Part shown: positions 35,296-50,737 of the stretch, in pieces
Position numbering within the stretch: position 1 is the stretch's first letter
Layout: the number at the start of each line of letters is the position of its first letter
DNA from: Dehalococcoidales bacterium
GTDB taxonomy: Bacteria; Chloroflexota; Dehalococcoidia; Dehalococcoidales; UBA5760
NCBI GenBank assembly: GCA_034414575.1
Contig: DAOULZ010000012.1
Coordinates: forward strand, 3,035 to 67,034
Direction of reading: 5' to 3'
DNA length: 64,000 bases
The notes under the pieces: generated by a model
The model's input: only the letters and a program-made list of their open reading frames with translations
What the model was told of the DNA's origin: nothing
The model's database searches: none
Position numbers and translations under genes: made by a program

Positions 35296-35664
35296 CTAGG
35301 CTGCTTTTAGGGTAATCTGAATTGTCTTGACTTTCTTAGCTACCTGGGCTACCGAGGGCATTTCCCTTAGTATATCCAGCAGTGACAGGGGGGTTTCCGC
35401 GGAGACAACAATCTCAGTACCGTCGACCATCGAACCGCTAATCAATACTAAGCGCAGGTCTTGAACCTGACATAGGTGCTCTTCTAATTTGCTGATCTGG
35501 CCTGAATCTACCGGGGGAACTATGGTCAGTTTTACTATGCCCTTATACAGTTCCGCACCGGTCTCTTTGGCTGGCGGTTCTGCCTTTTTCTTAATCTGAT
35601 CCTCTGCCTTCTTAGTCTCCTCAATCTCGTTCTTAGCGCTTTGCCCAGTTTCTTTCTCTTCCAT
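35296..35664 (-). CDS. hypothetical protein (K/E-rich N-terminus, about 80-aa conserved-looking C-terminal domain)
   Basis: 122-aa ORF with coding-like composition. No motif recognised. Confidence 0.45.
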   Translation of the reverse strand: MEEKETGQSAKNEIEETKKAEDQIKKKAEPPAKETGAELYKGIVKLTIVPPVDSGQISKLEEHLCQVQDLRLVLISGSMVDGTEIVVSAETPLSLLDILREMPSVAQVAKKVKTIQITLKAA

Positions 35665-36091
35665 CTCGGCTTTCTCCTTGGCTCCTCTTAGCTTCCGCTT
35701 AGTACTTTTGCACCCTACCCGGTGCTAAGCTAATGCTTATGTTGTGGTCAGGTTACTCCCGAACGTTGGTTAGTATAAACAGAGTCGGAAACACCTGTCA
35801 ATCACGATTGATATTTATTTTTCTCTATACGCTGTTGGAGTTACTTCTATATGCAGTGGCCAGGCAGCTTGGAGATGGTAGGCAGTGATGATTTCTAATT
35901 GAGATTTTCTCAGTACTCATCCTATCTTATCCTTACTTTACTTTACAATTTAATTGTTATATGGTATCTTATTGTCCTATTACTAATGGGGGATTGTTTC
36001 GCTGTCTAAATGGCCCGTTTGGGTGATTGTATTGGGTAGTAGGATGAGGCAGAATAGGTTGAGGTGAGTTTTAGATAGTTTAAGAGAGGAG

Positions 36092-36388
36092 GTGGATATG
36101 CCAAATCACAGCGAGATTGATCCTATGCTGACAACGAGCGAAGTAGCGCGACTGCTTAATGTGCATATCAATACGGTGAGACGGTGGAGTAATCAGGGGG
36201 TACTAAAGACATACCGAATCGGGGCACGTGGTGACCGGCGATTTCACCGGGACGATATTACTAGTTTCCTGTCACAGAAGTCGAAGATGGCTAGGTTGGA
36301 TACCAAGATGGAAATCCCCTCCTCGTTAGACCAAACGTCAGGAAGTCAAGAGAGCTTGTCAACATCCGTAGTCTGTGAAAGTAAGTAA
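36092..36388 (+). CDS. excisionase/MerR-type helix-turn-helix DNA-binding protein
   Basis: LTTSEVARLLNVHINTVRRWSNQGVLKTYRIG..GDRRF is the classic excisionase-family HTH. A GGAGGTG RBS precedes the ATG at 36098. Confidence 0.8.
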   Translation: MDMPNHSEIDPMLTTSEVARLLNVHINTVRRWSNQGVLKTYRIGARGDRRFHRDDITSFLSQKSKMARLDTKMEIPSSLDQTSGSQESLSTSVVCESK

Positions 36389-36411
36389 TACCTATATGTA
36401 CGAGGGAGCTA

Positions 36412-37092
36412 ATGAATAAAATCGTGATAATGATAATTGATGAGGAGTCTTTCTTTAGGGCTGGTGTGCGTCAGGCGCTGTCTCAGCAGCCGGACTTTGA
36501 GGTATTGGATTGCGATCCATCTAATGGTCCACTAGAGATGATTGAGGCCCACCTTCCCCATATTGCCCTGCTCGGCTCGGCCCTCGGTGCCCATAACGGG
36601 CTGGAGTTGGGAAGAAAGATTGCCCGTTTTTACCCAAATACTAGGGTAATCATGCTAAGTCCCAATCCTGATGACGAAGAGCTTTTTGAGGTTATTAAGA
36701 CGGCAGCCGTAGCCTGCTTAAATAGGAATACCGCTGTGGCAGATCTCATTAATACGATAAGACGGGCGTCTCGGGGTGAATATCCGATAAATGAGAGCCT
36801 TATGACGAGACCCAAGGTTGCCCAACGTGTGTTAAAGCAGTTTGAAGATATATCATCGATGGACAAGGATATTGAGACGGTAATCGCACCCCTCACCCGT
36901 CGCGAGACACAGATTCTGGACTACGTTGCTGAAGGCAACACAAATAAACAAATCGCCGATATCCTGGGCATTAGTGAGCAGACGATTAAGAGTCATGTCA
37001 GTGCCATCCTGCGTAAGCTGAATGCTAATGATAGAGCCCATGCTGTTGCCCTGGCCATCCGTAATGGTTGGATTTCGCCGGGTGAAAAGTAA
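36412..37092 (+). CDS. LuxR/NarL-family regulator with an aspartate-less (pseudo-)receiver domain
   Basis: C-terminal LuxR HTH (LTRRETQILDYVAEGNTNKQIADILGISEQTIKSHVSAILRKL). The receiver-like N-terminus has Gly where the phospho-acceptor Asp is expected (HIALLGSALGAHNGLE). Confidence 0.85.
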   Translation: MNKIVIMIIDEESFFRAGVRQALSQQPDFEVLDCDPSNGPLEMIEAHLPHIALLGSALGAHNGLELGRKIARFYPNTRVIMLSPNPDDEELFEVIKTAAVACLNRNTAVADLINTIRRASRGEYPINESLMTRPKVAQRVLKQFEDISSMDKDIETVIAPLTRRETQILDYVAEGNTNKQIADILGISEQTIKSHVSAILRKLNANDRAHAVALAIRNGWISPGEK

Positions 37093-37175: not shown

Positions 37176-39605
37176 GTGGCTAATCTGAGTAAAGAGAAGG
37201 TTTCGAGCAAAAATGATGAGCTTGATTTCCGCAAATTGGCGGACCCTGCTGCCTTTGAATCGCGGGAAGAGGGAGGCAAGGTGCCGCAATTAGAGCTTGA
37301 TTCAAAGCTAAAGGACCAGATTTGTGATAACCTTCGCAAGCAGGGATATGAAGTAACCGAGGAAGCTAGACTTGTCGGTAAATCAGGGGTCGAGCATACC
37401 TTCGATATTCTGGTGCAAAGGGACGATGGTTTCATCAGCTACACCATGGCAATTTGCACTACCGCTGGAGGTGATAGAGAGGCAGAGGTAAAAACTATTT
37501 TCAACTTCGCCAACAAGGCCTATGATTGCGGTATTATTGACCGGGTGCTTATTGCTGTCCCAGAGGTTAGTCCTGAGGCAAAGCAGCTGGCTAATAAACA
37601 GCGGATAAAGGTTATTGAAGCCGACAAGATGGTAACCGTGCTTGGCTCAAAGCCGGTACCGCAGGTTAAACCTGAGGAGCCACTTGGGTTTGAGACACGG
37701 GAGCAACTGGTGAAATCTTTGCTGAATCTCGGCTACAGGGTTGAGGAAAAAGCTAAGGTTCAGAGCCGATCTGGGGTTGAGTATAACTTTGATATACTGG
37801 CCCATATTGGTGAGGGCAGTGCTGCTCACAGCCTGGGGATAGACTTTTTGAGCGGGGAGAAGGAAGTAGATCTGGAGCAGGTATCGCTGTTTGATACTAA
37901 GGCCTATGAGGTTGGTATTGATGATAAAGTTATTGTTGTCTCACCAGTGCTTAGCCCGGAAGCAAAGCAATTCACCCAGCATCAGCGAATAAGGGTTTTT
38001 GAGCTGGGAACAAGCCCAACCTCTAAGGATTCAACTGATAAGGAGACACCTTCACCGTTAACATTGGCGGCAACAAAGCCAGATTCTGCTAAGGGTAAGA
38101 CCAAACAGCTACGGCAGATGGTTCAGCCCGAGGCGTTACAACTGATACCTGAGGTGATGGCAAGAAGGTATAATGCCGTACCGCTGACTCTCTCAGGTAG
38201 CACGTTAAAAGTAGCCATGGCCGATCCGACTGATATCTTTGCTCTGGAGGCTTTTTCAGCCCTGAGTAAAAAGCGGATTCAACCGGTAGGTGCCGATCCT
38301 AGAGAAGTCAGGGAGGCTATTGACTTTAACTACAAGGGGCATAGCGAGATTGAAAAGCAGATCGCTCATATCTCTATTCCGGCTGATGCCCTTGATGAGA
38401 GGCTGGCAATTGATGCGGCTATTGATGCCCCCCTGGCTCAGGCTCTCAACCTTATTATTGAGGAGGCAGTTCGGGCTCACTCGTCCGATATTCACATTGA
38501 GCCCGAAGAGGACAGGGTAAGAGTACGTTACCGCATTGATGGTACCCTTCAGGATATGATGTCTCTACCTCTGACAGTACATCGAGCCATTATTTCTCGA
38601 ATTAAGATTTTGGCTGATATGAATATTGCTGACCATCATCGTCCTCAGGATGGGCAGTTTTCTACTCAAGCCAAGGGGCGGGAGATAGATGTTCGTGTCG
38701 CTACCGGGCCTACTGTCTGCGGCGAGATGGCGGTACTGCGGCTCCTCGACAAAGCTCGGGCTACTTTGGGGTTATCAGAGCTTGGTTTCTTGGTGGATAG
38801 CCAGGAAAAATATGAAAGTTTGCTCAAGGTGCCCTATGGCATGATCTTAATTAGTGGTCCTACCGGGGCTGGTAAGACTACTACCTTATATGCTTCCATC
38901 AATTCCCTTGATACCATGGGACGGAACATAATTACTATTGAGGACCCGGCTGAGTATCGGTTTAAGGATATTAATCAGATTCAGGTTAATCCTCAGGCTG
39001 GTATTACCTTTGCCCGAGGACTGCGGTCGATACTCCGTCTTGACCCCGATGTCATAATGGTCGGCGAAATACGTGATACTGAGACGACTCAAATAGCGGT
39101 TCAATCAGCTCTGACGGGGCATCTTATGCTCTCCTCTATTCATGCTAGTGATGCGGCTGGTGTGCTCACCCGTCTCATTGACCTCGGGGTGGAACCCTTC
39201 TTAATCGCTTCGTCTGTTATTGGTGTTGTCGCTCAGCGGATGGTACGTCGCATCTGTCCTGATTGCAGTCACCTAATTGAGGCGCCCCTGGTGGAAAGAC
39301 TGGCTTATCAAAGAGAGCTGGGGGAGGAGAAGACCGAATTTCTGTATGGCACCGGTTGTGCCACCTGTGCTTATACCGGTTATCTGGGCCGAACCGGAAT
39401 CTTTGAGATTCTGTTGATGAGTGATAGTGTCCGAGCTCTGGTTACTAATCAAGCTAATAGCAGTGAGATTCGAGCTAAGGCGCTTGAGGAAGGGATGAGG
39501 TCTATGATGAACGATGGTATGCGCAAGGTGCAAGCCGGTATTACTACTCCGTCTGAAGTACTGCGTAGCGCTTACTCCCCTGACCTTAATGTAGACTTAG
39601 CATAG
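37176..39605 (+). CDS. pilB: type IV pilus extension ATPase (GspE/PilB family) with an unusual duplicated N-terminal domain
   Basis: T2SSE_N domain (LKVAMADPTD), Walker A GPTGAGKTTT, Asp/His boxes and a tetracysteine motif (CPDC...CATC). Residues ~43-150 and ~172-277 are two copies of a degenerate nuclease-like domain. Confidence 0.92.
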   Translation: MANLSKEKVSSKNDELDFRKLADPAAFESREEGGKVPQLELDSKLKDQICDNLRKQGYEVTEEARLVGKSGVEHTFDILVQRDDGFISYTMAICTTAGGDREAEVKTIFNFANKAYDCGIIDRVLIAVPEVSPEAKQLANKQRIKVIEADKMVTVLGSKPVPQVKPEEPLGFETREQLVKSLLNLGYRVEEKAKVQSRSGVEYNFDILAHIGEGSAAHSLGIDFLSGEKEVDLEQVSLFDTKAYEVGIDDKVIVVSPVLSPEAKQFTQHQRIRVFELGTSPTSKDSTDKETPSPLTLAATKPDSAKGKTKQLRQMVQPEALQLIPEVMARRYNAVPLTLSGSTLKVAMADPTDIFALEAFSALSKKRIQPVGADPREVREAIDFNYKGHSEIEKQIAHISIPADALDERLAIDAAIDAPLAQALNLIIEEAVRAHSSDIHIEPEEDRVRVRYRIDGTLQDMMSLPLTVHRAIISRIKILADMNIADHHRPQDGQFSTQAKGREIDVRVATGPTVCGEMAVLRLLDKARATLGLSELGFLVDSQEKYESLLKVPYGMILISGPTGAGKTTTLYASINSLDTMGRNIITIEDPAEYRFKDINQIQVNPQAGITFARGLRSILRLDPDVIMVGEIRDTETTQIAVQSALTGHLMLSSIHASDAAGVLTRLIDLGVEPFLIASSVIGVVAQRMVRRICPDCSHLIEAPLVERLAYQRELGEEKTEFLYGTGCATCAYTGYLGRTGIFEILLMSDSVRALVTNQANSSEIRAKALEEGMRSMMNDGMRKVQAGITTPSEVLRSAYSPDLNVDLA

Positions 39606-46750: not shown

Positions 46751-46782
46751 AAAGAAAAAAAGAGGGGCATTAAGCCCCTCTT
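46751..46782 (-). terminator. rho-independent terminator (canonical on the minus strand for the pilin gene; may also stop pilT transcription)
   Basis: GC-rich hairpin AAGAGGGGC-ATTAA-GCCCCTCTT (46760-46782), followed on the minus strand by a 7-T run within TTTTTTTCTTT. Confidence 0.7.
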
Positions 46783-46950: not shown

Positions 46951-47382
46951 CTAGCTGGAGGGAGTTACTTTTACGGCGCCAGTAGTCGCATCGATGTTGT
47001 ATGGTTGGGAGAGCGTATCTCCAGATTCGAAGCCGAGGATGTAGCTATCCAGAGTGACGGTATTTGTACCGTCTGTTGCGGTTACCGCGTGAACTTCGTC
47101 ATAGGTATCAACACCTGTACCGCCGGAGCAACTACTGGCATTGACGTCAGCCATCATGGCAATCACTGCTGTCTGGACATTGGCTAGCTCCGTGTCCTTG
47201 GCCTCCTGCTCACCCTCGCTCATGAACTTGGCGATGTTAGGGATGGCGACTGCGGCCAGAACACCCAGAATGGCAACCACCACGAGCAGCTCAATCAGGG
47301 TGAAACCCTTCTGCCCGCGACGGAGCTTCCTGGTAAACCTCATCTCGCCGTAGTGAAGCCTTCTCATTAATGTCTTCATCAT
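46951..47382 (-). CDS. major pilin candidate (prepilin-type N-terminal cleavage/methylation domain) with long leader
   Basis: ...RRGQKG|FTLIELLVVVAILGVLAAVAIP. The start is set at the ATG after AAGGAGGTG, giving a 27-aa leader. An internal Met would give 13 aa. Confidence 0.85.
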   Translation of the reverse strand: MMKTLMRRLHYGEMRFTRKLRRGQKGFTLIELLVVVAILGVLAAVAIPNIAKFMSEGEQEAKDTELANVQTAVIAMMADVNASSCSGGTGVDTYDEVHAVTATDGTNTVTLDSYILGFESGDTLSQPYNIDATTGAVKVTPSS

Positions 47383-47420
47383 TATTTGTTTCACCTCCTT
47401 TTCTCAGTCTATGATGAAGT

Positions 47421-47447: not shown

Positions 47448-47475
47448 AGTTTAGCACAGCTACCGTCAGAGTCAA
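47448..47475 (-). promoter_or_regulatory. sigma70-type promoter of the pilin gene
   Basis: On the minus strand: TTGACT (47475-47470), 16 nt, TAAACT (47453-47448). Confidence 0.4.
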
Positions 47476-47652
47476 TCACGCATTAGTAATAGTAAGATAG
47501 TATGAGTCCGTGTGCCGCCCTGCTTGGTTTTGTCTCTCTGGGAAGCGAAGAATAACGTCGGGAAATGTACTCTGCCCGCTGATACCCCCTTTTAGTATTA
47601 GTGTCGTCTTTAAAGTGTCAGGTGAATTTTGCTATCATCAAGGTAGTATATC

Positions 47653-49020
47653 CTAGCCAGATGATCCTAATTTGTCAACCTCAAAGACTCTGATGCGCTG
47701 CCTTTCGGCAAACTGCTTGGCTTCCTGGCTGAGCCCTGGAGAAGCAATCAGTACCTTGTTCTGGATTCCGATGTCATAGGCCTTATCATCAAAATCGAAT
47801 ACTTTGCCCAGTTCTATTGGCTTATCGCTGGCCTCCATGCCGATAGCAACCTGATGCGTGACAATGCCGTCGTCTCTGATTGCCAGAATATCAATATTAT
47901 GTTCGGCACCAGACCGGCCCCTAGCTTTTGCCTTCTTCTTTACCTCATAGGCATATTGCTTCAGGTATTCTACCAGATGAGAAGTGGACTTGAATTCGAA
48001 TGGCTCCTTCTTAACTCTTACATCCAGTGGTGGTATAGCTCTGGCGAGTACTGCATCCAAATCTTTAACCGGTAGCACCGTAATTCTCTGGTGACTGGCA
48101 AATGTCGCTGCTGCCTCGTCTAATGGGGGATCAACCAGCAAGACCTTCTCACGAATGCCAGTATCATAGGCTTTATCATCAAATTCACATACGTCTCGCA
48201 GGGATACTTTATCCCCAGCCGCCTTAATCCCAATGGCAATTTCATGGGTTATAATGCCGTCATCTCTGGTTGCCAAGATATCAATATTGTGTTCGGCACC
48301 AGACCGGCCCTTTCTGGTAGCATTTTCGATTACTTCATAGCCGCACCGTTTCAGAAACTCTGTGAGCTGGGCCTTAGGTTTAAATTCAAACTCCAGCCAG
48401 CTTCTTTTGGCTTCATCAATGCTGTAGGAGTAGATATTTACCTCAGTAATCTTGTCCTCACTGGTGATTGAGGAGCATCTTAGGCAGCGCCATTTTGTTA
48501 CCGGTATCTGGAAAACGTCACCGCAGACGTGACACTTACGCATCAGGCCCAGGCTTCGATAGTCACTATCGAGTTTACGTAGCTCTGCTTTACACTTGGG
48601 ACATATGAGTCTGCCCTGAGCTATAAACTCATCTTCAAGCCCGACATATCCACAGATAGAGTGTTCTAGGACCCTGCCTCGAGCGATATTACCAGAACCA
48701 CACTTGGGACAGTTAGTGGTTGGTCTCAAATTTACTGACCGACACTGAGGGCAATGGAGAAACCGGTCAAAGAAGTCCTTATTTAGGATACCCTTATTAA
48801 CCAGGGACTCCAGCATTGATACTGCTTCCTGCCCTTTAGCCTCCAGTTTTTCTTCGATAAAGGGATAGGTAAAACCCAGTTCGCTGGTAAAATCAAGTTC
48901 GGGTCTAATATCAATAATCCCCTCCGCCAGCATGGTGGCTACTAGCTTAGTGGCTCTTTTGTCATTCCCTAAGCTGGGTAGAGCTTTAGCTGCTCTCTGG
49001 AAATCATCGCCTTTCACCAT
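47653..49020 (-). CDS. multi-zinc-ribbon protein with two C-terminal copies of the PilB-type degenerate nuclease-like domain
   Basis: Start at the ATG after GGAGGTGG. The helical N-terminus is followed by CPQC..CPKC, CPKC and CHVC..CLRC ribbons. Two repeats of about 110 aa share GRSGAEHNIDILA.RDDGI.TH..AIG ... FDDKAYD.GI..KVL ... QRI.V with the PilB N-terminus. Confidence 0.75.
   Translation of the reverse strand: MVKGDDFQRAAKALPSLGNDKRATKLVATMLAEGIIDIRPELDFTSELGFTYPFIEEKLEAKGQEAVSMLESLVNKGILNKDFFDRFLHCPQCRSVNLRPTTNCPKCGSGNIARGRVLEHSICGYVGLEDEFIAQGRLICPKCKAELRKLDSDYRSLGLMRKCHVCGDVFQIPVTKWRCLRCSSITSEDKITEVNIYSYSIDEAKRSWLEFEFKPKAQLTEFLKRCGYEVIENATRKGRSGAEHNIDILATRDDGIITHEIAIGIKAAGDKVSLRDVCEFDDKAYDTGIREKVLLVDPPLDEAAATFASHQRITVLPVKDLDAVLARAIPPLDVRVKKEPFEFKSTSHLVEYLKQYAYEVKKKAKARGRSGAEHNIDILAIRDDGIVTHQVAIGMEASDKPIELGKVFDFDDKAYDIGIQNKVLIASPGLSQEAKQFAERQRIRVFEVDKLGSSG
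47863..47920. repeat. DNA-level direct repeat, copy A (within domain repeat 4)
   Basis: 58 nt matching 48253-48310 at 53/58 positions, offset by 390 nt. Confidence 0.8.
48253..48310. repeat. DNA-level direct repeat, copy B (within domain repeat 3)
   Basis: See copy A. The pair encodes the G.SGAEHNIDILA.RDDG core of both domain copies. Confidence 0.8.
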
Positions 49021-49135
49021 TTTCCACCTCCGCCAATTGAATCTGTGGATAAAGTATACTGCTGTCAAGTGCTAAAATCAATAACCTGCTTTTCCTATTG
49101 ACTGGACTCTGAAAAGCAGTCAAAATAGAGACTAG

Positions 49136-49933
49136 ATGGAAAACGCCCTGCTAGCCATTTTTACCACATTGGGTATGGTTATAGCTAGTTTCCTCAATGT
49201 CGTGATTGACCGATTACCCAATAAGGAGTCACTTATTTTTCCTCCCTCTCATTGTCCCTCCTGTCAGCATCGCCTGGCGGTAAGGGACCTGGTGCCTGTC
49301 TTCAGCTACCTGTGGCTACGTGGTCGCTGTCGTTATTGTCAGGCTCCTATCCCCCGGCGACTGCTGGGGATGGAAATTGGCCTTGGGGCTCTATTTCCGC
49401 TTCTTTACTGGCATTATGGTTTGAGTGTTGAATTAGGAATTGTTGCCTACTGCTGCTGCCTGTTCATTGTGCTCATGGTTATTGATTGGGAGCACGGGCT
49501 TATCCTCAACAAGATTGTGTACCCGGCCATGATAGCAGCCGTGCTTATCAGTATCTTTCTAGCCGGGAGCATAAGCGTTTTCATGCTGGGTAACAGCATT
49601 ATCCTCCTACCGCCGGGAATCGCTCAGGCGGCCATCGGTGGCGCGGTTGGCTTTGGCATAACCTTGTTGGTAGTTCTTCTCTCCAGAGGTGGCATGGGTT
49701 GGGGGGACGTTAAGATGGCGGCCCTGATCGGGCTGGTTATTGGCTTTCCGCTAGTGTTTTTTACATTAATCATGGCGGCAATCTTAGGCGGTTTGGTGGC
49801 GGTGATTTTGCTCCTGCTCAAGAAAAAGAAGCGGAAAGAGGCAATCCCCTTCGGTCCGGCCCTGGCTATCGCCACTATCGTTACCTTAATCTGGGGAAAA
49901 GGCATCCTCATCTGGTGGCTGGGAATATTCTAA
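49136..49933 (+). CDS. pilD: prepilin peptidase (A24 family)
   Basis: N-terminal CPSC...CRYC zinc motif, multiple TM helices and the catalytic-Asp motif GWGDVKMAALIG. Confidence 0.92.
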   Translation: MENALLAIFTTLGMVIASFLNVVIDRLPNKESLIFPPSHCPSCQHRLAVRDLVPVFSYLWLRGRCRYCQAPIPRRLLGMEIGLGALFPLLYWHYGLSVELGIVAYCCCLFIVLMVIDWEHGLILNKIVYPAMIAAVLISIFLAGSISVFMLGNSIILLPPGIAQAAIGGAVGFGITLLVVLLSRGGMGWGDVKMAALIGLVIGFPLVFFTLIMAAILGGLVAVILLLLKKKKRKEAIPFGPALAIATIVTLIWGKGILIWWLGIF

Positions 49934-50095: not shown

Positions 50096-50359
50096 ATGGA
50101 AGGTAGAAGGTCAAGTATTCAAGTAATAGCCGATATATTGAGACTGGGGGAAGCGGGTAAGACCGAGATAATGTATAGTGCCAACATGAGCTTCTTCCAG
50201 CTGAAGAAGTATCTCAACTTCCTGCTTGAATTGAGGTTGATTGATAAAGTAACGGTGGGGAATCCCACGGTGACTTACCGGGTGACCAGGAAGGGCCTTA
50301 GGTTGCTCAGGAGTATAGATGCCGTACTGGAGATACTCGAGCTAAAAGAGGCTGACTGA
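50096..50359 (+). CDS. small winged-helix DNA-binding protein (HTH_45-like)
   Basis: 87 aa. IQVIADILRL...GKTEIMYSANMSFFQLKKYLNFLLELRLI...YRVTRKGLRLL is a wHTH pattern I associate mainly with archaeal small regulators. Confidence 0.6.
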   Translation: MEGRRSSIQVIADILRLGEAGKTEIMYSANMSFFQLKKYLNFLLELRLIDKVTVGNPTVTYRVTRKGLRLLRSIDAVLEILELKEAD

Positions 50360-50380: not shown

Positions 50381-50737
50381 GTGGCTGAAAAAAGAATGCT
50401 GATAGTGCCAGCCGAGCTCGTTAGGCGAATCGATGAAAATCGCGGTGATATGAGTCAGGCGGAGTTTATCGATTTTCTGATTGATAGTCAGCTGAAAGAG
50501 GAGACCAAGACTAAAGAGCAGGGAAAGTATGTCACCGAAGAGCAGTTTCACTCTCTGGAGCAGGATATAAAGAAGCTCCTCAGGAGCTTCCTTGATTTCT
50601 TTGTCAGCTACGGTCTTGAACTGGGTAAGCAGGCTCCCCACTCTGAGTTTGAAGAGCTTGCCAGCCGCTTGCAGGGACTGGAGAAAGAGCTGGATTCCGA
50701 CTCCGGTAAGGGCAAAGCGACCATAAAGTGGAAGTAG
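50381..50737 (+). CDS. ribbon-helix-helix (CopG-like) domain protein
   Basis: MLIVPAELVRRIDENRGDMSQAEFIDFLI is an RHH pattern with a helical C-terminus. AAGGAG RBS and GTG start. Confidence 0.55.
   Translation: MAEKRMLIVPAELVRRIDENRGDMSQAEFIDFLIDSQLKEETKTKEQGKYVTEEQFHSLEQDIKKLLRSFLDFFVSYGLELGKQAPHSEFEELASRLQGLEKELDSDSGKGKATIKWK

Follow-up and report, generated by a model that had tools for sequence, protein, structure and literature searches.

A 64,000-nucleotide (nt) stretch of DNA from a Dehalococcoidales bacterium (GenBank assembly GCA_034414575.1, contig DAOULZ010000012.1, positions 3,035 to 67,034; hereafter the window) contains a type IV pilus gene cluster, in which a gene between those for the major pilin and the prepilin peptidase PilD encodes a protein with an N-terminal TackOD1 domain and a C-terminal tandem pair of restriction-endonuclease-like (REase-like) domains. 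The same pair forms the N-terminus of PilB, the ATPase of the pilus motor, and across related loci it is supplied either by the TackOD1 gene directly upstream of pilB or by PilB itself. We tentatively interpret the TackOD1 protein as a cytoplasmic protein without catalytic activity that regulates the type IV pilus machine or serves as one of its accessory subunits, an assignment in which our confidence falls a little short of even. The organisms concerned are uncultured, and the mechanism proposed below is drawn solely from gene order and domain architecture.

The relationship between the TackOD1 protein and PilB extends over the entire pair. A BLASTP comparison aligned the C-terminal half of the TackOD1 protein with residues 34-280 of PilB at 41% identity over 253 residues (E 2e-53), with the two regions collinear and the linker included. 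The remainder of PilB is typical of a pilus ATPase, with Pfam matches to T2SSE (E 3.6e-127) and MshEN (E 6e-17), and it matches both TIGR02533 and TIGR02538 with scores under their equivalog cut-offs. A profile search of the six-frame translation detected exactly four copies of the REase-like domain in the window, two in the TackOD1 protein and two in PilB, which are 36-54% identical pairwise. The original prediction, made from the sequence alone, had counted the same four copies; the two that it placed in the TackOD1 protein at nt 48061-48384 and 47671-47997 were recovered by the profile with bounds within about 20 nt. A search with the PilB N-terminus found the pair in two credible architectures, PilB and the TackOD1 proteins, with P0142 as the exception. 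This protein combines the REase-like region with a MerR/HTH_17 region and was rejected as a third architecture, being probably a chimeric assembly on a 1.7-kb Logan contig; its C-terminus corresponds to the product of a separate HTH_17 gene of the window (36092-36388, plus strand), joined in the middle of REase-like domain 2.

The two sources of the pair are complementary. The arrangement was judged in 24 loci drawn from the genome and metagenome scans described below, where loci with separated genes were counted only if the PilB N-terminus was visible. In 18 of them (L057, L058, L067-L069, L071, L072, L074, L075, L079, L153, L156, L157, L162, L163 and L165-L167), pilB is directly preceded by the TackOD1 gene and encodes a PilB without the REase-like pair. 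In the complete chromosome OY970123.1 (L072), for example, a gene for a 453-residue TackOD1 protein is followed, after a 27-nt gap, by one for a 519-residue PilB without REase-like domains. The genes are apart in the remaining six (the window, L070, L076, L080, L168 and L169), and PilB there has a pair of its own. In all 24 loci, the pair is encoded directly before the MshEN-ATPase part, forming either the C-terminus of the protein encoded upstream or the N-terminus of PilB. As judged from gene order and domain content, this complementary layout is a fission/fusion ('Rosetta stone') pattern, and it provides the strongest evidence for the pair working with PilB. In a neighbour-joining tree of the individual domains, PilB domains 1 and 2 group broadly with domains 1 and 2 of the TackOD1 proteins, respectively. 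The domain-2 copies of PilB fall into a single clade irrespective of locus, and the resolution for domain 1 is poorer. From this grouping it follows that the pair probably moved as a unit, which suggests an old event rather than recent local duplication. Programmed read-through from the TackOD1 gene into pilB was also considered and found no support, as the two genes share a reading frame in four of the ten adjacent loci of the genome set, about the proportion expected by chance. In L070 (3124-5458), the TackOD1 gene is separated from the fused pilB by four tandem paralogous genes for proteins of 141-142 residues. One of these proteins weakly matches MAPKK1_Int of the Roadblock/LC7 superfamily (E 4e-4, below the cut-off), and the paralogues may be MglB-like regulators.

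The shared domain, which the original prediction was unable to name, belongs to the restriction-endonuclease fold represented by Pfam Mrr_cat (PF04471). This profile matched twice in the C-terminal half of the TackOD1 protein (E 2.5e-13), and Foldseek assigned the modelled C-terminal domains to the PD-(D/E)xK fold, with AF1548 (1y88) matched at an E-value of 3.6e-6 and a probability of 1.00 and further matches to NucS/EndoMS, VC1899, Can2/Cdn1, MspJI and AspBHI. By profile and Foldseek the domains thus share their fold with Mrr, AF1548, the Hjc resolvase and NucS/EndoMS, and the β1/β2 layout, G-x-S-G ... D-I-L-A, resembles that of Hjc and Mrr. They differ from the PD-(D/E)xK nucleases in strand β3, which reads G-I-x or D-x-x, and in having no restriction-modification context. 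Specifically, the β2 aspartate (H-x-x-D-I-L-A) is retained, whereas the β3 sequences are IAIGIK (domain 1), where (D/E)xK has lost its acidic residue, and VAIGMEA (domain 2), where the motif is absent. The β3 consensus of 72 Dehalococcoidia homologues is I-G-I (IAIGI-x), and that of 44 archaeal-type proteins is ID-x-x without a lysine. In a sister branch linked to GT2 polysaccharide synthases, the helix lysine of FDDKAYD is replaced by arginine or another residue. Conserved in all branches are G-x-S-G, the β2 aspartate and Y-D-x-G-I. Because (D/E)xK is not conserved, the REase-like domains have probably lost their catalytic residues and are most likely inactive as nucleases. The net charge is -3 (acidic) for domain 1 and 0 (neutral) for domain 2. 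Weak matches to NA-iREase1 (NACHT-associated inactive restriction endonuclease 1, PF22722) fit the inactive-nuclease interpretation. Against a cut-off of 27 bits, the PilB-type copies in homologues reach 24.9-30.1 bits, with most homologue matches falling short of it; P0127 and P0142, at 24.9-26.4 bits, are among these, and the TackOD1 protein P0189 attains 33.4 bits; the Pfam scan of the window protein gave no NA-iREase1 match at E <= 1. The two systems are alike in placing an inactive REase fold as an accessory domain on an NTPase, but the partner ATPase is NACHT in one and PilB/GspE in the other.

The N-terminal half of the protein is a complete TackOD1 domain (PF18551). The match has an E-value of 1.1e-42, scores 146.2 bits where the cut-off is 32, and spans positions 7-188 of the 188-position profile. 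The zinc ligands of the domain, C90/C93, C104/C107, H120/C123, C140/C143, C163/C166 and C179/C182, are invariant in the 72 homologues and reproduce the signature that defines TackOD1, eleven cysteines arranged as five CxxC units plus one HxxC. The original prediction had seen three or four zinc-ribbon units; with twelve Cys/His ligands, the module is predicted to form three zinc sites. AlphaFold2 modelled the TackOD1 part alone with a pLDDT of 91 and the whole 455-residue protein with a pLDDT of 86.8 and a pTM of 0.67. Foldseek found no significant relative of the TackOD1 model in the PDB (best E 0.011), and therefore no known function can be transferred to the domain. The weak local likenesses include the winged helices of MarR, SarA, Stf76 and TFIIE-alpha, rubredoxin knuckles and the MCM N-terminal domain, and the winged-helix matches of the head are non-significant (E > 0.2). 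The winged-helix-like head has a pI of 4.7, and its putative recognition helix carries no basic residues and has a net charge of -1 (family median -1 to -2). The zinc-ribbon module is basic, with a net charge of +5. PDB sequence-profile searches with the whole protein and with the REase-like domain returned nothing significant; their best match was the MCM N-terminal domain (E 0.007), which Foldseek also found weakly (E 0.03), and this likeness is a lead only.

The name TackOD1 dates from 2018, when it was given to a lineage-specific output domain of response regulators that occurs mainly in Thaumarchaeota and in some bacteria and whose function was called 'obscure' (PMC5847659). The name, equivalent to arCOG06883, stands for 'Thaumarchaeal output domain 1', and the domain has been reported in thaumarchaeal type IV pilus loci (PMC5847659, PMC4858521). 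The protein of the window resembles this family in its full-length profile match, its five CxxC and one HxxC units and its residence in a pilus locus. It differs in being bacterial, in lacking a receiver domain and in carrying two C-terminal REase-like domains that are also found on PilB; the available portions of the family-defining texts (PMC5847659, PMC4858521) make no mention of the C-terminal domain or of the PilB fusion. Assignment to a known regulator family, which the original prediction had set against its own hypothesis, thus holds for the name, since the wider family is an established response-regulator output domain, and not for a function, which PMC5847659 describes as obscure.

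Relatives of the protein fall into a small number of architectures. A word-indexed search returned 864 relatives, the best 120 of which all share the architecture of the window protein and come from Dehalococcoidia/Dehalococcoidales metagenome-assembled genomes, and an exhaustive search of cluster representatives yielded 2370 proteins at E <= 1e-3, including 154 at E <= 1e-30. Pfam scans of samples, together with cluster names, distinguished four architectures: TackOD1 with two REase-like domains (about 455 residues, Dehalococcoidia); a receiver, sometimes an extra zinc ribbon, and then TackOD1 with two REase-like domains (620-980 residues; the receiver-TackOD1-Mrr_cat proteins are P0189, P0191, P0194, P0201 and P0202); TackOD1 with one REase-like domain (about 320 residues), including proteins of Nitrososphaerales (Thaumarchaeota); and the REase-like pair with MshEN and T2SSE, that is, PilB (789-809 residues). 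One cluster representative, P0294, has part of a UDP-glucose dehydrogenase fused to TackOD1.

Within the Dehalococcoidia, the gene co-occurs with pilus genes. A scan of one genome per species gave 167 relatives in 80 loci, nearly all labelled Dehalococcoidia or Chloroflexota. In 71 of the 80 Dehalococcoidia loci, tblastn with the pilus proteins of the window found at least one pilus gene, and in seven of the nine others the sequence ends within 500 nt after the TackOD1 gene. Two gene orders occur. In the first, as in the window, pilD, the TackOD1 gene and the pilin gene follow one another, with pilT, pilMN, pilC and pilB beyond; in the second, the TackOD1 gene is immediately upstream of pilB-pilC.

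Outside the Dehalococcoidia, the TackOD1 gene adjoins a different machine. Its neighbour is a processive-type GT2 gene (Glyco_transf_21 / Glyco_tranf_2_3 / chitin-synthase-like) in the Nitrososphaerales loci L081-L083, in L085/L086, in L089 and in two receiver-fused bacterial forms (L084 and the P0202 contig); in L084, a histidine kinase also adjoins the receiver-fused gene. A KaiC-like ATPase in L087 and a DUF87 ATPase in L088 take the place of GT2. In L085 (9013-9447), the gene for a stand-alone REase-like protein of 144 residues separates the GT2 gene from a TackOD1 gene of the single-domain type, and because of this partner we suggest that the working unit of the REase-like domain is a pair or dimer. 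A metagenome scan seeded with a receiver-type alignment covered 80 further loci. The GT2 gene is next on the same strand in 56 of them, at a median inferred gap of about 65 nt, accompanied by an epimerase in 28 and a UDP-glucose dehydrogenase in 24, while PilB follows the TackOD1 gene in 10. Neither comes next in the other 14, of which 11 have less than 500 nt downstream, two are short (L103, 716 nt; L123, 822 nt) and one, L152, has the pilus layout of the window. The GT2-linked layout (L090-L151, L081-L086 and L089), often with an epimerase and a UDP-glucose dehydrogenase close by, resembles the hyaluronan-type has operons. No such GT2 was detected in the window, and the Dehalococcoidia loci gave a single weak, partial match, in L051. 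As far as gene neighbourhoods tell, the family has two branches with mutually exclusive neighbours, a pilus engine or a polysaccharide synthase engine. The wider TackOD1 family is not pilus-specific, whereas its Dehalococcoidia subfamily is. The concern that the family might occur mostly away from pilus loci is therefore borne out for a large sister branch and not for the subfamily of the window protein.

The promoter region of the pilin gene contains a conserved element. The window has two exact copies of the 12-mer CTATTACTAATG, at 47481-47492 on the minus strand and at 35977-35988 on the plus strand, and about 30 nt around them are alike. An alignment across loci revealed a conserved block between the TackOD1 and pilin genes, ...TACTATTACTAATG-N4-ATTGAC-N17-TGCTAAACT, which is composed of an upstream element, a -35 box that the upstream element abuts, and an extended -10 box. 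The element can also be written TTACTAAT-N5-ATTGAC and, in general form, TTAC(T/C)AA(T/C)-N5-ATTGAC. In about 1.1 Mb of Dehalococcoidia loci, including L003-L043, TTAC(T/C)AA(T/C)-N5-ATTG was found at 33 sites; all but one of those with a scored gene match precede the start of a pilin or pilT gene by 80-230 nt. From its position and conservation, the element looks like a pilus regulon operator or an UP-like element. It defines a pilus regulon and does not thereby identify the regulator.

In the mechanism that we tentatively favour, the TackOD1 module, with its winged-helix-like head and three predicted zinc sites, would act as the output or adaptor part, and the REase-like pair would be the part that communicates with PilB, either through docking onto the ATPase or because it senses a ligand that the PilB-fused copy also senses. 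The pair would take the regulatory place that the c-di-GMP (cyclic diguanylate)-binding N-terminus holds in other PilB/MshE ATPases. A regular-expression search for the c-di-GMP-binding MshEN motif, RLGxx(L/V/I)(L/V/I)xxG(L/V/I/F)(L/V/I)xxxxLxxxLxxQ, found none in PilB or in the six-frame translation of the window, and because PilB lacks this motif, the pair may supply its regulatory input. In the receiver-fused sisters, the same module would come under phosphorylation control, and its target would be the GT2 polysaccharide synthase, not PilB. We consider regulation at the protein level more likely than DNA binding. The original prediction had proposed that the shared domains heterodimerise or bind a common ligand. 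There is no need to invoke simple one-to-one heterodimerisation, because each protein already has a complete tandem pair; this completeness, together with the conserved polar residues of the old active site, favours a common ligand, and the gene-order pattern favours physical association of the pair with PilB. The c-di-GMP receptors (MshEN of MshE/PilB, PilZ-FimX-PilB, and PilZ on cellulose/alginate synthases) offer a functional analogy only. They too are small regulatory modules fused to the N-terminus of a pilus ATPase or standing separately beside it, and elsewhere they act on processive GT2 systems, but they have no sequence or fold relationship with the REase-like pair, and the window PilB carries no c-di-GMP motif.

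Several observations weigh against this assignment to the pilus motor. The polar residues of the former active site (S-G, D and Y-D) are conserved whether the protein is PilB-linked, GT2-linked or archaeal, which speaks for a shared ligand rather than a protein contact particular to one machine. The sister branch adjoins a GT2 synthase, and a regulator of neighbouring genes, such as a transcription factor, would explain such varied targets more simply. Furthermore, the basic zinc-ribbon part could bind nucleic acid, and no binding protein has been assigned to the element that is conserved in front of the pilin and pilB operons. Finally, L019 and L060, both with full flanks, contain a gene for TackOD1 with the pair and no pilus genes within 4-10 kb, although these copies may be orphaned or relocated. 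The neighbours in L019, which encode a metallo-beta-lactamase-fold protein and acyl-CoA dehydrogenases, are unrelated to pili.

The transcription-factor alternative has a smaller, though appreciable, chance of being correct. It holds that TackOD1 binds the promoters of the pilin and pilB operons and that the pair is a dimerisation or effector-sensing domain, whose copy on PilB lets motor activity and expression answer the same signal. The use of TackOD1 as a response-regulator output domain (PMC5847659) is consistent with it, as are the constant proximity of the gene to an operon to be controlled (pilB, pilin or GT2), the weak likeness of the N-terminus to the winged helices of MarR/SarA/Stf76 and TFIIE-alpha, the +5 charge of the zinc-ribbon module and the 33 element sites upstream of pilin or pilT, two copies of the element being present in the window. 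However, the winged-helix matches do not reach significance, the putative recognition helix is acidic family-wide, and the three other DNA-binding proteins of the window pilus cluster, namely the HTH_17, LuxR-type and HTH_45 proteins, could use the promoter element. Moreover, fusion of the C-terminal half of a transcription factor to a motor ATPase would not be expected unless that half were purely a sensor. The original prediction of a nucleic-acid-binding zinc-ribbon regulator of pili therefore keeps its tie to the pilus, through the 71 of 80 loci and the pair shared with PilB, while its nucleic-acid-binding part is weakened by the acidic head, the recognition helix without basic residues and the presence of three ordinary DNA-binding proteins in the cluster.

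A further alternative, which we regard as unlikely, treats the pair as the receptor for a hypothetical small symmetric ligand, such as a nucleotide second messenger, bound at the former active site of a pseudo-dimer. The ligand would switch PilB directly and the TackOD1 protein in parallel, making the pair a functional counterpart of PilZ or MshEN. G-x-S-G, H, the β2 D and Y-D-x-G-I are kept in TackOD1 proteins, PilB fusions, GT2-linked forms and archaeal single-domain forms, whereas (D/E)xK is not; the functional unit appears to be paired, through tandem duplication or through a single domain and the stand-alone partner of L085; and the absence of the c-di-GMP motif from the window PilB points in the same direction. 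Pili and GT2 synthases are, in addition, classic targets of c-di-GMP receptors. Conversely, the neighbourhoods showed no cyclase and no other enzyme that makes a messenger, and the conserved polar residues may simply be structural. The least probable explanation, with only a very slight chance of being correct, is an active nuclease or DNA-processing enzyme for pilus-mediated DNA uptake or defence. The Mrr_cat match and the PD-(D/E)xK fold would agree with it, as would the labels 'restriction endonuclease' or 'Holliday junction resolvase' that some sources attach to homologues. Yet (D/E)xK is gone from both domains and across the family, and the GT2-linked branch makes a role in DNA uptake unlikely. 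A defence or restriction system was likewise rejected as a candidate, with no PADLOC match, no NCBIfam name and no methyltransferase or defence-gene context, and an active nuclease or defence role is unlikely overall.

Control of PilB on/off switching is known in a few model bacteria, through c-di-GMP and MshEN, PilZ-FimX and the Chp system. The present data point to a different PilB input module, widespread in Dehalococcoidia and related Chloroflexota, in which an inactive nuclease-fold pair is either fused to PilB or supplied by a neighbouring TackOD1 gene. A cassette of TackOD1 plus the pair, often under two-component control, precedes a GT2 synthase in many metagenomic lineages and in ammonia-oxidising archaea, so that the 'obscure' TackOD1 output domain gains a testable role in the control of cell-surface polymers, pili and exopolysaccharide. 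In the openly accessible literature we found no paper on the C-terminal REase-like domain of the family, its presence on PilB, the complementary fusion or the GT2 association, nor did searches on REase-like domains of PilB or on the pili of Dehalococcoidia yield anything relevant. The PilB-shared inactive-nuclease pair, the complementary fusion pattern and the GT2-linked sister branch appear to be undescribed. A broader proposal, which we consider rather improbable, is that the pair is a previously unrecognised signal-receiver module of archaea and bacteria that directly switches both the PilB ATPase, as a fused domain or within a neighbouring TackOD1 protein, and GT2 exopolysaccharide synthases. 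If true, such a signal-receiver pair, possibly for a nucleotide second messenger, would be a counterpart of PilZ/MshEN where c-di-GMP signalling to these machines is not evident.

Table 1. Positions of the TackOD1 gene, pilB and neighbouring features in the window (aa, amino acid residues; iE, independent E-value; ORF, open reading frame).
Feature	Position (nt)	Strand	Evidence
Gene for the TackOD1 + 2x REase-like (most likely inactive) protein, 455 aa	47653..49020	-	ORF, ribosome-binding site, homologues, Pfam, AlphaFold2 model
TackOD1 domain, aa 20-201: acidic winged-helix-like head and β-rich module of 5 CxxC + 1 HxxC	48418..48963	-	PF18551
REase-like domain 1, aa 212-326	48043..48387	-	Profile iE 8e-50, Mrr_cat match, Foldseek
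REase-like domain 2, aa 341-453	47662..48000	-	Profile iE 1e-53, Mrr_cat match aa 349-451
PilB, 809 aa, REase-like pair + MshEN + T2SSE ATPase	37176..39605	+	Pfam; NCBIfam GspE/PilB-type ATPase
PilB REase-like domain 1, aa 42-155	37299..37640	+	Profile iE 5e-46; Mrr_cat aa 47-154
PilB REase-like domain 2, aa 170-281	37683..38018	+	Profile iE 7e-45; alignment
Pilin promoter TTGACT-16-TAAACT with TG and conserved upstream element CTATTACTAATG	47448..47492	-	Promoter scan; conserved across Dehalococcoidia loci
Second copy of the element, before the HTH_17 - LuxR regulator - pilB operon	35977..35998	+	Exact 12-mer match
Major pilin gene	46951..47394	-	N_methyl motif, E 8e-11; next gene downstream of the TackOD1 gene
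Prepilin peptidase PilD	49136..49933	+	Pfam A24_N_bact + Peptidase_A24
HTH_17 protein (98 aa) and LuxR-type response regulator, head of the pilB operon	36092..37092	+	ORFs; Pfam Response_reg + GerE
HTH_45 / Sso10a-family small winged-helix protein	50096..50359	+	PF14947, E 9e-21; NCBIfam Sso10a_fam 62.7 bits, cut-off 60

The mechanical list of open reading frames gave a longer frame for the TackOD1 gene, starting at a TTG at 49068 and encoding 471 residues. Since a GGAGGTG ribosome-binding site precedes the ATG at 49020 and the homologues are 451-464 residues long, the 455-residue frame that the original prediction had adopted is the correct one. As predicted, the pilin gene follows on the same strand after 258 nt, with a terminator-like hairpin at 46760-46782, and pilD stands on the other side, 115 nt upstream and divergent. 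An Rfam search between the TackOD1 and pilin genes for an RNA element or attenuator returned nothing relevant. The HTH_17 assignment at the head of the pilB operon is taken from the match of this gene product to the HTH_17 region of P0142. Small open reading frames occupy both edges of the pilus cluster, at 35296-35664 on the minus strand (122 residues) and 50381-50737 on the plus strand (118 residues); a Pfam scan gave no match for either, and the 118-residue frame also had no NCBIfam match. A gene of the HTH_45 / Sso10a family, a family of archaeal chromatin proteins, occurs near the TackOD1 gene in the window, in 24 of the 80 Dehalococcoidia loci and in the archaeal loci L081 (10873-11190) and L089 (1117-1389). 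This recurrence hints at a cassette shared or exchanged between bacteria and archaea.

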